From the NCBI GenBank assembly GCA_049603835.1, contig JBMYSZ010000015.1, positions 19,576-83,575 on the forward strand: a stretch of DNA of 64,000 nucleotides. The letters are read 5' to 3'. A program made the translations under genes and the position numbers. Below the pieces are notes generated by a model. That model ran no database searches and was not told the DNA's origin. It saw only the letters and a program-made list of their open reading frames with translations. Numbering within the stretch: the stretch's first letter is position 1; each line of letters opens with the position of its first letter. Source of the stretch: Mangrovicoccus sp. GTDB lineage: Bacteria > Pseudomonadota > Alphaproteobacteria > Rhodobacterales > Rhodobacteraceae. This document shows positions 7,892-36,446 of the stretch, in pieces.

Positions 7892-7946
7892 GGTGGGCTT
7901 AAGCCCACCCTACTCTTCGTGGTGTAGGGTGGGCAATTTGCCCACC
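7892..7946. repeat. Inverted pair of a REP-like palindromic element (GGTGGGCTTAAGCCCACCCTAC ... GTAGGGTGGGCAATTTGCCCACC)
   Basis: Two 22-23 bp palindromic units in opposite orientation in the rpoB-rpoC intergenic region. The same unit recurs at five other sites in the window. Confidence 0.6.
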
Positions 7947-7974
7947 GCCTCTGCCCATTTTCAAGGATTGCCCA

Positions 7975-10900
7975 ATGAACCAGGAACTGACCAACAACCC
8001 TTTCAACCCGCTGACCCCGCCGAAGCAATTCGACGAGATTAAGGTTAGCCTCGCCTCGCCGGAGCGGATCCTGTCGTGGTCCTATGGCGAAATCAAAAAG
8101 CCGGAAACCATCAACTACCGGACTTTCAAGCCGGAACGCGATGGCCTGTTCTGCGCCCGTATCTTTGGCCCGATCAAAGACTACGAATGCCTTTGCGGCA
8201 AATATAAGCGGATGAAATATCGCGGCGTTGTCTGCGAGAAATGCGGTGTGGAAGTCACGCTGCAAAAAGTCCGCCGCGAACGCATGGGCCATATCGAGCT
8301 GGCCTCGCCGGTTGCGCATATTTGGTTCCTTAAATCCCTGCCATCCCGCATCGGCCTCATGCTTGACATGACCCTGCGCGATCTGGAGCGGATCCTCTAT
8401 TTCGAAAACTATGTGGTGATCGAGCCCGGCCTGACCGATCTGGTCTATGGTCAGCTGATGACCGAAGAGGAATATATGGACGCGCAAGATGCCTATGGCA
8501 TGGATGCGTTCACCGCAGGGATTGGTGCCGAAGCGATCCGTGAGATGCTGTCGCAGATCGATCTGGAAGCCGAAGCCGAGCAGCTGCGCGCTGATCTGGC
8601 CGAAGCCACCGGCGAGCTGAAGCCGAAGAAGATCATCAAGCGTTTGAAGATCGTCGAAAGCTTCCTTGAATCCAATAACCGCCCGGAATGGATGATCCTG
8701 ACCGTGGTGCCGGTGATCCCGCCAGAGCTGCGCCCGCTGGTGCCGCTGGATGGGGGCCGTTTCGCGACCTCGGATCTGAACGACCTTTATCGTCGTGTGA
8801 TCAACCGGAATAATCGCCTGAAACGTCTGATCGAGCTGCGCGCTCCGGATATCATCATCCGCAATGAAAAGCGGATGCTGCAGGAATCCGTTGATGCCTT
8901 GTTCGACAACGGCCGTCGCGGCCGCGTGATCACTGGTGCCAATAAGCGCCCGCTGAAATCGCTGTCGGATATGCTGAAAGGTAAGCAGGGTCGCTTCCGT
9001 CAGAACCTTTTGGGTAAGCGCGTCGACTTCTCCGGTCGTTCGGTGATTGTGACGGGCCCTGAACTGAAGCTGCAGCAATGTGGCTTGCCCAAGAAGATGG
9101 CGCTCGAACTCTTTAAGCCCTTCATCTATTCGCGGCTTGAAGCGAAGGGGCTTAGCTCCACCGTGAAGCAAGCGAAGAAGCTGGTGGAAAAAGAGCGTTC
9201 GGAAGTTTGGGATATCCTCGATGAGGTGATCCGCGAACATCCCGTCATGCTCAACCGCGCGCCGACCTTGCACCGTCTGGGCATTCAGGCCTTTGAGCCG
9301 GTCCTGATCGAAGGTAAAGCGATCCAGCTTCACCCGCTGGTCTGTTCGGCCTTTAACGCGGATTTCGACGGCGACCAAATGGCTGTCCATGTTCCGCTGA
9401 GCCTCGAAGCGCAGCTTGAAGCGCGTGTTCTGATGATGTCCACGAACAATGTTCTGTCGCCGGCCAATGGTGCACCGATCATCGTTCCATCGCAGGATAT
9501 GATCTTGGGTCTCTATTATGTGACCCTGGAACGGGCCGGGATGCCGGGCGAGGGCATGGTCTTTGGCTCTATGGAAGAGGTGGATCACGCGCTGGCCTCT
9601 GGCGCGGTGCATCTGCACGCCAAGATCAAAGCGCGCGTCAAGCAAATCGACGAAAACGGGCTGGAAGTCTATCAACGCTTCGACACAACACCGGGTCGTT
9701 TACGCGTGGGCGCTTTGTTGCCGCTCAATGCCAAAGCGCCGTTTGAGCTGGTGAACCGTCTTCTGCGGAAGGGCGAAGTTCAGCAGGTCATCGACACCGT
9801 TTATCGCTATTGCGGCCAGAAAGAGAGCGTCATTTTCTGTGACCAGATCATGACCTTGGGCTTCCGCGAAGCGTTTAAGGCCGGCATCAGCTTTGGCAAA
9901 GACGATATGGTTATCCCTGATAATAAATGGGAAATCGTCGATGGCGTGCGCGACCAGGTGAAAGAATTCGAACAGCAATATATGGACGGCCTGATCACTC
10001 AGGGCGAGAAATATAACAAAGTTGTCGATGCTTGGTCGAAATGTAACGATCGCGTCACCGAGTCCATGATGGACACGATTAAGCAGCTTCCGGTCGATGA
10101 AGAAGGCCGTGAAGGCGAGCCGAACTCGATCTTTATGATGGCCAACTCCAAAGCGCGGGGCTCGGTCACCCAGATGAAGCAGCTGGGCGGGATGCGCGGC
10201 CTGATGAACAAGCCGAATGGCGAAATCATCGAAACGCCGATTATCTCGAACTTTAAAGAAGGTCTGACCGTTCTTGAGTACTTTAACTCCACCCACGGGG
10301 CCCGGAAGGGTTTGTCGGATACGGCGTTGAAGACTGCGAACTCGGGATATCTGACCCGTCGTCTGGTGGATGTTGCGCAGGATTGTATCGTGCGCGAGCA
10401 TGACTGTGGCGGCGATAAGTCCATCACAGCGGAAGCGGCCACCAAAGACGGCAATGTCGTGGCGTCTCTGTCGGAAACCATTCTGGGCCGTGTCGCGGCC
10501 GAAGATGTGTTCCGTCCGGGCACTGACGAGGTTATCGTGTCCTTGGGCGAGCTGATCGATGAACGCAAAGCGGATATGGTGGAAGAGGCCGGTGTGGCCT
10601 CGATGCTGATCCGCTCGCCGCTGACTTGCTCCACCGAGGATGGGGTTTGTGCCCAGTGTTACGGTCGTGACCTGGCGCGCGGTACTCAGGTGAATATCGG
10701 CGAAGCAGTCGGCATTATCGCGGCGCAGTCCATCGGCGAGCCGGGGACCCAGCTGACCATGCGGACCTTCCACATCGGCGGTGTTGCCCAGGGTGGTGGT
10801 CAGCAGTCCTTCCAGGAAAGCAGCCAAGCGGGCCGCATCGAGTTGCGTAATCCGCAGCTCTTGCAGAACTCTGTTGGCGAAACTCTGGTCATGGGCCGGA

Positions 10901-12267
10901 ACTTGGTCATGGCCGTGTTGAGCGAGACGGGTGAAGACCTGATCACCTATAAGATCGGCTATGGCTCTAAGCTGTTGGTCAAGGATGGCGATCAGGTTGC
11001 TCGCGGCGACAAGCTCTTTGAATGGGACCCGTTCACCTTGCCGATCTTTGCCGAGGCAGGCGGGACGATCAAATTCGTTGATCTTGTCAGCGGTATTGCT
11101 GTGCGCGACGAAACCGATGATGCCACCGGCATGACCCAGAAAATCGTGATGGACTGGCGGACAGCGCCGAAAGGCAATGAGCTGAAGCCGGAAATCCTGG
11201 TTCTGGGCGAAGATGGCGAAGCGGTGCGCACCGATGCGGGCAAGCCGGTCACCTATCCGATGTCTGTGGATGCGGTTCTGTCGGTCGAAGACGGTCAGCA
11301 GATCGAAGCCGGTGACATGGTTGCGCGTATTCCGCGTGAAGGCGGCGGCACCAAGGACATTACCGGTGGTCTGCCAAGGGTTGCGGAACTCTTCGAGGCC
11401 CGCCGTCCGAAGGACCACGCGATCATCGCTGAAATCGATGGTTATGTGAAATTCGGCCGCGACTATAAAAACAAGCGTCGGATTAGCATCGAACCTGTCG
11501 ATGAAACCCTTGATCCGGTCGAATATATGGTCCCCAAAGGCAAACACATCCCGGTCGCCGAAGGCGATCTGGTGCAGAAGGGCGATTATATCCTCGACGG
11601 CAATCCTGCGCCGCATGACATCCTGCGGATCATGGGGATCGAGGCCTTGGCCGATTACATGATCGAAGAGGTTCAGGCGGTTTATCGTCTGCAAGGTGTG
11701 AAGATCAACGATAAGCATATCGAAGTGATCGTGCGCCAGATGCTGCAGAAATGGGAAATCCTAGATAGCGGTGACACCACGCTGCTCAAAGGCGAACATG
11801 TAGACAAGATCGAGTTCATGGAAGCCAATGAGAAGGCCTTGGCCAAAGGCGTGCGTCCGGCACAGGGCGAGCCGATCCTTCTGGGGATCACCAAGGCTTC
11901 GCTGCAGACCCGCTCCTTTATTTCTGCGGCGTCGTTCCAGGAAACCACGCGGGTTCTGACCGAGGCTTCGGTTCAGGGCAAACGTGATAAGCTGGTCGGC
12001 CTTAAGGAAAACGTCATCGTGGGTCGTCTGATCCCGGCAGGGACGGGTGGTGCTACGGCTCGGGTGCGTAAAATCGCGACCGATCGTGACCAGAAAGTCA
12101 TCGATGCACGTCAGGCTGAAGCGAACGAAGCTCTGGCTCTCGCGGCTCCGTCGGCGGGCCCCGAGGCTGATGACATGTCCGGTGGCTTCGGCGATGTGAT
12201 GGGCGATGATGTCTTTTCCAGCGATGATAGCGGTCTGGTCGAGCTGCCCGAGCGCGACGTAGAATAA
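7975..12267 (+). CDS. rpoC: DNA-directed RNA polymerase subunit beta'
   Basis: 1430 aa with the zinc-binding CX2C...CX2C N-terminus and the NADFDGD active site. Confidence 0.97.
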
Positions 12268-35700: not shown

Positions 35701-36298
35701 CGGGCACCCGCTTTGCCACTTCGCTGACTGTGGAATGGGCCAGATCGCTGGCCATGACCACAAAGATCAGCAAGGTCGATCCGGCAAAGGCAACGGTCAG
35801 GTTCAGATTTGCGGTCAGGCTAAGCCAATCCGTGTCGACTTTTGGCGATACGCTTTGGAACAGGCAAGAAAAGGTCGCATAGCCTAGGATAAGGTGGCGT
35901 ATGGCCCAGGTTTGCTTGCTTCGGGGCAGAACCGAGCGGCACAGCATATATGCCAGCGCTAAGGCCGATTGCACACAGAAATACAGCACCGGATGTGCGC
36001 GGGGCGCGTCGTCAAAGGCAAAGAAATGCCAGGGAAAGGCAAGGGCGCATCCCAGCGGGAAGAAGAGCAATACGAGGGTGGTCAGTTGTTTGCGGGTGGC
36101 ACAGATCTGGGCCGAGCGGGCGACAGCGGCGATGCCATGGATCCAACCGCCGATCCCCACAAAGGCCATGGCGACCGCAAACAGGCCCGCACCTTTATAG
36201 ACCACCGCCATGCGCGAGGCGAGATTGAGAAAGCCCATGACCGAGAAGGTGGTCAGGACCCATTTCGTATCTGGGCGAGATATCAGCTGCTGCAACAT
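35681..36298 (-). CDS. Hypothetical polytopic membrane protein
   Basis: 205 aa, hydrophobic throughout. Convergent with the TIGR02466 gene. Confidence 0.35.
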   Translation of the reverse strand: MLQQLISRPDTKWVLTTFSVMGFLNLASRMAVVYKGAGLFAVAMAFVGIGGWIHGIAAVARSAQICATRKQLTTLVLLFFPLGCALAFPWHFFAFDDAPRAHPVLYFCVQSALALAYMLCRSVLPRSKQTWAIRHLILGYATFSCLFQSVSPKVDTDWLSLTANLNLTVAFAGSTLLIFVVMASDLAHSTVSEVAKRVPVKPKRS

Positions 36299-36387
36299 GG
36301 CCGCTCTGGTGCCTCAGTCGGGCGTCGGTTACAAGGCTACAGAGCGCGCAGAGCCGCTTGACTGAATGGGAAAAGCTAGTGCGGTGC

Positions 36388-36446
36388 GATGGGCAAATTG
36401 CCCATCCTACATTTGGGCGGCGAGTAGGGTGGGCAATTTGCCCACC
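36388..36446. repeat. Inverted pair of REP-like units upstream of rpmC
   Basis: GATGGGCAAATTGCCCATCCTAC (36388-36410) and GTAGGGTGGGCAATTTGCCCACC (36424-36446). Confidence 0.6.

Follow-up and report, generated by a model that had tools for sequence, protein, structure and literature searches.

REP elements in the spacers of the rpo, str, and S10 genes

We analyzed a 64,000-nucleotide stretch of Mangrovicoccus sp. DNA (hereafter, the window), in which short palindromes of the repetitive extragenic palindrome (REP) type are found in the spacers of the rpoBC, str, and S10 gene clusters. Gene identities around these sites were assigned through Pfam and NCBIfam matches, and each REP copy is given the strand on which its GTAG head reads 5′ to 3′. 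Ten copies were found, at all six sites named in a preliminary description of this DNA, which had counted ten or more. As that description had also stated, every site is intergenic, and the spacers include those between rpoB and rpoC and between fusA and tuf, those that follow rplW and rplP, and the one that precedes rpmC.

Between the rpoB stop (7890) and the rpoC start (7975), copy 1 (7892-7913, −; GTAGGGTGGGCTTAAGCCCACC) begins 2 nt past the stop codon and forms the left half of a pair with copy 2 (7924-7946, +; GTAGGGTGGGCAATTTGCCCACC), from which it is separated by a 10-nt spacer. The second pair lies between the end of fusA (16516) and the start of tuf (16618). Its left half, copy 3 (16535-16557, −), begins 19 nt past the fusA stop, and its right half, copy 4 (16567-16591, +; GTAGGGTGAGCGCTTGAGGCTCACC), is a diverged variant with the stem GGTGAGC/GCTCACC and a 7-nt loop, in which the G-to-A and C-to-T stem changes are compensatory and keep the pairing. 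The site was thus correctly located in the preliminary description, except for its end coordinate, which had been given as 16592. Copy 5 (19938-19959, −; GTAGGATGGGCATTTGCCCATC) is a lone A-type copy that begins 12 nt past the rplW stop (gene end at 19926). Two more A-type copies follow rplP (end at 23824), with copy 6 (23837-23859, −) starting 13 nt past its stop and copy 7 (23920-23942, +) lying on the other side of a terminator. The remaining copies belong to the 12.7-kb block that separates rplP from rpmC. Copy 8 (34970-34992, −) stands alone inside the block, between an open reading frame (ORF) of 306 aa and a gene for a 2-oxoglutarate (2OG) oxygenase of family TIGR02466. The right border of the block carries a pair formed by the A-type copy 9 (36388-36410, −) and copy 10 (36424-36446, +), the latter lying 150 nt upstream of the rpmC start (36596). 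The ORFs that overlap this last pair show a non-coding pattern of GC content by codon position, and no other type of ORF overlaps it.

The copies share a compact unit of 22-25 nt, in which a GTAG(G) head precedes a 7-bp G+C stem (GRTGGGC/GCCCAYC) closed by an A/T-rich loop. All ten carry the GTAGG head as well as a perfect 7-bp stem with a loop of 4-7 nt. When we searched the window for the 23-mer GGTGGGCAAATTGCCCACCCTAC with up to three mismatches, as had been proposed for the whole genome, seven copies were obtained, compared with none over 100 shuffles. The shorter pattern GTAGGRTGRGC, which covers the head and half of the stem, occurs exactly ten times (shuffle mean 2.55, maximum 6). The same ten copies were recovered by a finder based on structure (GTAG, a 7-nt arm, a loop of 3-9 nt, and a complementary arm), whose two further matches, at 8162 and 40040, are unrelated GTAG hairpins. 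No copy was found in positions 1-7891 or 36447-64000 of the window. The REP family is the sole genuine interspersed repeat family of the window; apart from it, the only real match is between two tRNA genes that are alike, and all other families resemble chance matches.

Inverted pairs fold into composite hairpins beside separate terminators

Four of the six sites are inverted REP pairs with the GTAG heads facing inward, an arrangement termed head-to-head by Nunvar et al. (PMC2817692) and TT by Di Nocera et al. (PMC3733652). Each pair is predicted to fold into a composite hairpin, with folding energies from −38.5 to −70.8 kcal/mol and z-scores from −4.4 to −9.9, in agreement with the large hairpins expected from the preliminary description. 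The values are −42.7 kcal/mol (z = −7.7) for the rpoB/rpoC pair and −41.1 kcal/mol (z = −6.4) for the pair at 36388-36446, while copies 6 and 7, after rplP, form a 118-nt hairpin of −70.8 kcal/mol (z = −9.9). The spacers within the four pairs measure 10, 9, 60, and 13 nt and are unrelated in sequence.

The longest of these spacers holds the intrinsic terminator of the rplP transcription unit (23866-23902, +), in which a 14-bp stem (23866-23896) is followed by a T run; the bracketing of a canonical terminator by this pair had been noted before and is borne out here. A terminator-like hairpin with a T run (19969-19998, +) likewise lies directly after copy 5, so that a separate canonical terminator stands beside the REP at two sites, after rplW and after rplP. 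The REP hairpins themselves lack the T run after the stem that defines an intrinsic terminator.

The REP family is widespread in the Rhodobacterales

To place the family in a wider context, we scanned a collection holding one genome per species with the pattern GTAGGRTGGGCAWWWKGCCCAYC. The 23-mer was found in at least 115 stretches of these species-representative genomes, nearly all from Rhodobacterales; the hosts among the matches listed include Tateyamaria, Salipiger, Tabrizicola, Pseudorhodobacter, Primorskyibacter, Litoreibacter, Aliishimia, and Ca. Rhodobacter oscarellae. Several unlinked stretches occur per relative genome, with EG16N_Bin5 reaching at least 10 and Salipiger abyssi at least 5. 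Across the matched stretches, the loop is mostly AATTT, and the lack of conservation in the flanks limits the repeat unit to the 23-mer. At the second stem position, where the search pattern permitted all four combinations, 162 of 165 copies have a G:C or A:T pair. Neighboring copies form 37 inverted pairs versus 2 tandem ones, and the spacers within pairs are heterogeneous, being mostly 6-30 nt long and unrelated in sequence. The preliminary description had called the element lineage-specific, which does not hold given this distribution over many Rhodobacterales genera, nor given that the head and stem equal those of a REP from Haemophilus influenzae (see below). The placement of the window itself in this order agrees with its Rfam match to the Rhodo-rpoB motif (3634-3722) and with its best relatives by ribosomal protein L16, which are 93-94% identical to it.

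The exact REP pattern is also present in metagenome-assembled genomes labeled Alteromonadaceae (four stretches, all from one such genome), Xanthomonas, Burkholderiales, and cyanobacteria (Tolypothrix, Brasilonema, and Hormoscilla), corresponding to our stretches L028, L071, L072, L084, L061, L092, L100, L099, and L094. These matches may represent real families, chance matches, or mis-binned contigs.

The same REPs flank transposase genes in relatives

REP-associated tyrosine transposases (RAYTs, also TnpA-REP) are single-strand DNA endonucleases of the HUH/Tyr type. Using the E. coli RayT sequence from the annotated K-12 record as a tblastn query against the stretches obtained with the pattern, we found homologues in two of them. 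In stretch L011, the gene at 1445-1965 encodes a 173-aa RAYT and has a REP on either side, at 1386-1408 (−) and 1966-1988 (+). The protein is 45% identical to E. coli RayT and matches its structure (PDB 4ER8, E. coli TnpA-REP) with E = 1.1e-44; its HLH aligns to the E. coli HMH, i.e., the HUH motif, and a tyrosine aligns, by our count, to the catalytic Y115. It scores 184.1 bits against the NCBIfam model NF047646 (REP_Tyr_transpos, REP-associated tyrosine transposase), for which the cut-off is 80. The score against Pfam Y1_Tnp is 20.4 bits, under the cut-off of 23, as is usual for RAYTs (PMC6006769). The closest homologues of the L011 protein are all from Rhodobacterales, and many of them carry the name REP-associated tyrosine transposase in their sources, several of them in NCBI or UniRef.

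In total, a RAYT gene is directly flanked by this REP family in five relatives (L011, L057, L117, L118, and L119), with REPs on both sides also in L117 (Tateyamaria), L118 (Ca. Rhodobacter oscarellae), and L119 (Roseovarius albus). Three genomes (LFTY01, JBCCBC, and JBCCXY) combine a REP-flanked RAYT with dispersed REP stretches. The association with a RAYT gene, which had been put forward as a check on the identity of the elements, is thus present in the relatives.

Two further features of these loci were observed. In three genera, the RAYT gene ends within the downstream REP, whose GTAG head supplies the TAG stop codon (L011, 1966-1968; L117, 10538-10540; L118, 10532-10534). In L118, the RAYT coding sequence itself contains a REP copy (10261-10284), in frame and flanked by the HUH and Tyr motifs; an in-frame REP inside a RAYT is known for another TnpA-REP subclass (Quentin et al. 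2018, PMC6006769).

The fusA/tuf pair recurs in relatives with compensatory stem changes

A REP pair with inward GTAG heads occupies the fusA/tuf spacer in nine genomes or contigs, namely, the window and L097, L070, L102, L122, L124, L125, L126, and L201. The EF-G proteins of these eight relatives share 80-87% identity with that of the window, and the str-region DNA beside the pair in L097, L070, and L102 is 74-78% identical to the window. Five stem variants occur at this site (GGTGGGC, GGTGAGC, GGCGGGG, GGTGGGG, and GGTGCGC), each of which is self-complementary, and GTAGG is invariant in 18/18 position-defined copies. In the alignment of these copies, 99.1% of cells are paired, with both-sided changes in three of the six pairs counted, a result matched by 0 of 500 shuffles and by no slid register.

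The fusA/tuf spacer holds unrelated hairpins in L120, which is closest to the window by EF-G (90%), and in L121 (−19 and −21 kcal/mol, respectively), and no hairpin was found in this spacer of L127, a more distant relative. A REP after rplW is present also in L122 and L201. The rpoB/rpoC pair is special to the window, as L124 has one decayed copy, L123 another hairpin, and L120 little at this position. We also considered an orientation rule relative to the upstream gene, since the first REP at a site is always on the (−) strand in the window, but rejected it because the first REP is on the (+) strand after tuf and rplW in L201.

The break between rplP and rpmC is found in relatives without REPs

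REP pairs are found after rplP and before rpmC, that is, at the two borders of the 12.7-kb block, as originally noted, and the preliminary description had accordingly cast the REPs as recombination substrates for the observed rearrangements. This role is largely contradicted by the relatives. In L200, L201, and L202, rplP is followed by an intrinsic terminator of the same type without flanking REPs. In L200 and L202, whose 15-18 kb of fetched sequence contain no REP, the terminator is followed by a TIGR02466 2OG-Fe(II) oxygenase gene, 73-78% identical to that of the window, and then by rpmC, with two extra genes ahead of the oxygenase gene in L202. A different block, longer than 10 kb, follows the rplP terminator in L201, and that border is free of REPs. 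Since the break, the terminator, and the 2OG-oxygenase gene are present in relatives whose fetched stretches lack REPs, the REPs did not cause the split. As judged from these sequence comparisons, the rplP/rpmC break, its terminator, and the resident 2OG-oxygenase gene (35059-35700 in the window) are ancestral.

Insertions recur in relatives at four points of the ribosomal cluster (tuf/rpsJ, rplW/rplB, rplP/rpmC, and rpmD/rplO), and their cargo differs by genome (L201, 2716-3867; L202, 761-2032, 4495-4914, and 13962-16344; L200, 5208-5828). That tuf/rpsJ, rplW/rplB, and rpmD/rplO carry insertions in relatives without REPs in the fetched stretch further contradicts the proposed rearrangement role. 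Within the 12.7-kb block of the window, the 2OG-oxygenase gene is the sole gene common to the rplP/rpmC intervals of relatives. We therefore rejected the view of the block as a REP-mediated insertion, given this single shared gene and the ancestral break. We likewise rejected the view of the terminator as cargo of a mobile REP doublet, since relatives without REPs have a terminator of the same type after rplP.

One feature of the block points the other way. Compared with its counterparts in L200, L202, and L203, the 2OG-oxygenase gene of the window is inverted, and the oppositely oriented REPs at 34970 (−) and 36424 (+) delimit the inverted segment. We regard this inversion as a single, weak, unconfirmed hint of REP-associated inversion.

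Origin and possible role of the window REPs

Taking these results together, we consider it highly probable that the window elements are GTAG-tagged REPs, dispersed by a RAYT, that settled at pre-existing terminators and insertion hot spots and had no part in the operon breaks. The E. coli TnpA-REP enzyme binds the REP hairpin with its GTAG guide on single-stranded DNA, which it cleaves and rejoins (PMC3479197; PMC6006769). By analogy, an enzyme of the RAYT family would disperse and maintain the window copies in the host genome. On this account, the REPs accumulate where insertion is tolerated, i.e., in intercistronic spacers and at the ends of transcription units of the rpoBC, str, and S10 clusters, and have settled around terminators and insertion hot spots that were already there.

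Once transcribed, the REPs would be expected to form very stable mRNA hairpins, which most likely block 3′-to-5′ exonucleases or cause partial attenuation between cistrons. Copies located 2-13 nt past stop codons (rpoB, rplW, and rplP) could also disturb translation termination of the upstream gene. The suggestion in the preliminary description that the elements act as mRNA-stability or termination punctuation is plausible. The conservation of the fusA/tuf pair, together with the substitute hairpins in relatives that lack a REP there, provides the sole, indirect evidence for a function and hints at reuse as an intercistronic mRNA hairpin. Specifically, the pair could be a selfish repeat co-opted across Rhodobacterales as an intercistronic hairpin that helps set the output of EF-G versus EF-Tu, and the copies after rpoB, rplW, and rplP could, less consistently, have been co-opted as well; we hold this reading as a whole to be tentative and rather doubtful. 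In that case, the stem could change freely along with the REP variant kept by the resident RAYT.

Several observations weigh against the view of RAYT-dispersed repeats. All ten copies lie inside 28.5 kb of the window, with none in the other 35.5 kb; consequently, they are more clustered than an even genome-wide scatter predicts. No RAYT was detected in the window, where tblastn with either the E. coli or the L011 RAYT as the query returned only noise. The spacers within pairs are unrelated and give no sign that a doublet, rather than a single REP, moves. In addition, the conservation of the fusA/tuf pair may reflect repeated re-insertion or homogenization, rather than selection on RNA function.

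These points have to be set against the alternatives. The elements could instead be primarily regulatory RNA hairpins of the host, conserved between the cistrons of its ribosomal and RNA polymerase operons and either just resembling REPs or derived from REPs domesticated long ago, for which spread no longer matters. Such an origin would account for the fusA/tuf pair, whose position is kept in the nine genomes despite only 74-78% DNA identity of the flanking genes. It would also fit the compensatory stem changes, the other strong hairpins present at fusA/tuf in REP-less relatives, and the start of several copies 2-13 nt past a stop codon. However, of the at least 115 stretches with the identical 23-mer, only three overlap the ribosomal region of the window, and the identical 23-mer flanks RAYT genes. 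Moreover, the rpoB/rpoC pair is absent in the closest relatives L120 and L123 and reduced to a single decayed copy in L124, no Rfam family matches at the sites, and L127 lacks the fusA/tuf hairpin altogether. Regulatory hairpins of this kind are thus a possible but unlikely explanation. A further one, in which ordinary intrinsic terminators or palindromes that look alike by chance would produce G+C-rich hairpins at gene ends, is refuted by the shuffle statistics, which leave no copies to be expected, together with the sequence identity across genomes. It also fails to explain why the head and loop are conserved in sequence besides the structure, why the stem lacks a following T run, and why two sites have a terminator of their own; we assign it practically no probability.

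The remaining alternative concerns what the REPs did rather than what they are, namely, that the S10 operon was split, and the 12.7-kb block and a toxin-antitoxin module introduced, by recombination or integration with the pairs as substrates. The REP pairs at both block borders, the REP that borders the SocA module (described below) on its left, and the inverted 2OG-oxygenase gene between opposite REPs at 34970 (−) and 36424 (+) all speak for such a role. On the other hand, L200 and L202 have no REPs in the fetched stretch, yet in both the rplP terminator is kept and the interval up to rpmC holds the 2OG-oxygenase gene as well as extra genes. Insertions are present at tuf/rpsJ, rplW/rplB, and rpmD/rplO in L202, and neither the border of the L201 block after rplP nor the interruption after rpmD in the window has a REP. 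Furthermore, 23 bp is a short substrate for RecA-dependent recombination. We therefore find this scenario very improbable and retain the reading of RAYT-dispersed REPs without a part in the operon breaks.

For annotation, our results imply that the six sites should be labeled as REP elements and should not be taken for novel regulatory RNAs or for the borders of islands, and that the rplP/rpmC break should be treated as a locus of Rhodobacterales that is both ancestral and variable. For the possible reuse of REPs as mRNA punctuation, the fusA/tuf pair, with its compensatory changes across genera, provides a tractable test case.

Other features of the gene clusters

The S10 gene cluster contains an insertion (20126-20960), located after the rplW terminator and before the L2 leader, with a gene that resembles SocA/Panacea-type antitoxins (PF13274; NCBIfam SocA, 94 bits, below the cut-off). 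This gene is overlapped by a 128-aa ORF that matches no known family. The third-position GC content of the two is 0.44 and 0.40, respectively, versus ~0.65 in neighboring genes. In L201, the cargo at tuf/rpsJ includes an SduA_C gene (Shedu-like defense).

After rpmD, the cluster is interrupted at 40995-46321 by a gene with a VWA domain, a LuxR-type autoinducer-binding regulator, and three tRNA genes (41882-41954, 43173-43244, and 44473-44546). The GC content is lower (0.52) at 42-44 kb, and no REPs were found in this interruption.

Upstream of rpmC, the sequence ...CCA.C..AATCA.GGTGAC... is conserved among the window (~36505-36540), L200 (~5990-6030), and L202 (~9620-9660), although the genes ahead of it vary. 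It matches no Rfam family and may serve the rpmC-rpsQ unit as a promoter or leader. In the metagenome contig L200, L16 (4664-5149) has an in-frame tandem duplication of 24 residues (161 aa vs 137), a possible assembly artifact.

At gathering thresholds, the Rfam matches in the window comprise a Rhodo-rpoB RNA upstream of rpoB (3634-3722, 49.6 bits), an L2-Alphaproteobacteria ribosomal protein leader upstream of rplB (21065-21149, 48.1 bits), and the three tRNAs, with nothing at the REP sites.

Comparison with known REP systems

Our literature search for REPs or REP doublets in Rhodobacterales or Roseobacter returned no description, which does not prove that none exists, and a search for the REP sequence itself led to a single match, the H. 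influenzae REP listed by Nunvar et al. 2010 (PMC2817692). Among other short mobile elements, we considered a miniature inverted-repeat transposable element but rejected it, given the 22-25-nt unit, the unconserved flanks, and the lack of a target-site duplication.

CGTC-tagged REPs, which have been reported as predominant in Alphaproteobacteria (Di Nocera et al. 2013, PMC3733652), are similar to the window family in being short, palindromic, extragenic repeats that form mostly inverted dimers in alphaproteobacterial hosts. The tag of the window family, in contrast, is GTAG; Rhodobacterales were not among the taxa listed in that study (PMC3733652). The REP doublets of Pseudomonas fluorescens known as REPINs (Bertels and Rainey 2011, PMC3116915) share with the window pairs the folding of two inverted REPs into one long hairpin and the presence, here in relatives, of a RAYT in the same genomes. 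Unlike in REPINs, the doublet and its spacer are not repeated as a whole, and the spacers are short and unrelated between pairs. We therefore rejected a REPIN-type doublet as the replicating unit, given that the spacers within pairs are unrelated in both length and sequence.

Among the closest known parallels is the REP/BIME (bacterial interspersed mosaic element) and RayT system of E. coli (PDB 4ER8, “REPtron”). In support of the REP/BIME-like assignment of the preliminary description, both have a GT(A/G)G head beside a G+C palindrome, are extragenic, and occur mostly as inverted pairs, and in both the REPs lie on the flanks of their cognate transposase gene (here in relatives). The alternating orientation of BIMEs is matched as well (37 inverted versus 2 tandem neighbors across the matched stretches), although no conserved linker motif of the BIME-1/BIME-2 type was seen. 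In contrast to the E. coli REPs of ~35 nt, the window unit measures 22-25 nt and has a shorter, perfect 7-bp stem with no bulge, and its host is alphaproteobacterial (Rhodobacterales).

In sequence, the window family is identical in its head and 7-bp stem to the REP that flanks the RAYT NP_438385 in H. influenzae Rd, GTAGGGTGGGCTTcAGCCCACC (Nunvar et al. 2010, PMC2817692), such that the loop is the only difference between the latter and copy 1 (7892-7913). The two systems differ in the usual loop, which is AATTT here, and in their hosts, which belong to different proteobacterial classes; the shared core may reflect shared descent, horizontal transfer, or convergence. Altogether, the window REPs are an ordinary, though tidy, example of a well-known class that is common across Rhodobacterales, and they add to REP biology a compact, perfectly paired GTAG family, accompanied by a RAYT in relatives, from a marine alphaproteobacterial order.

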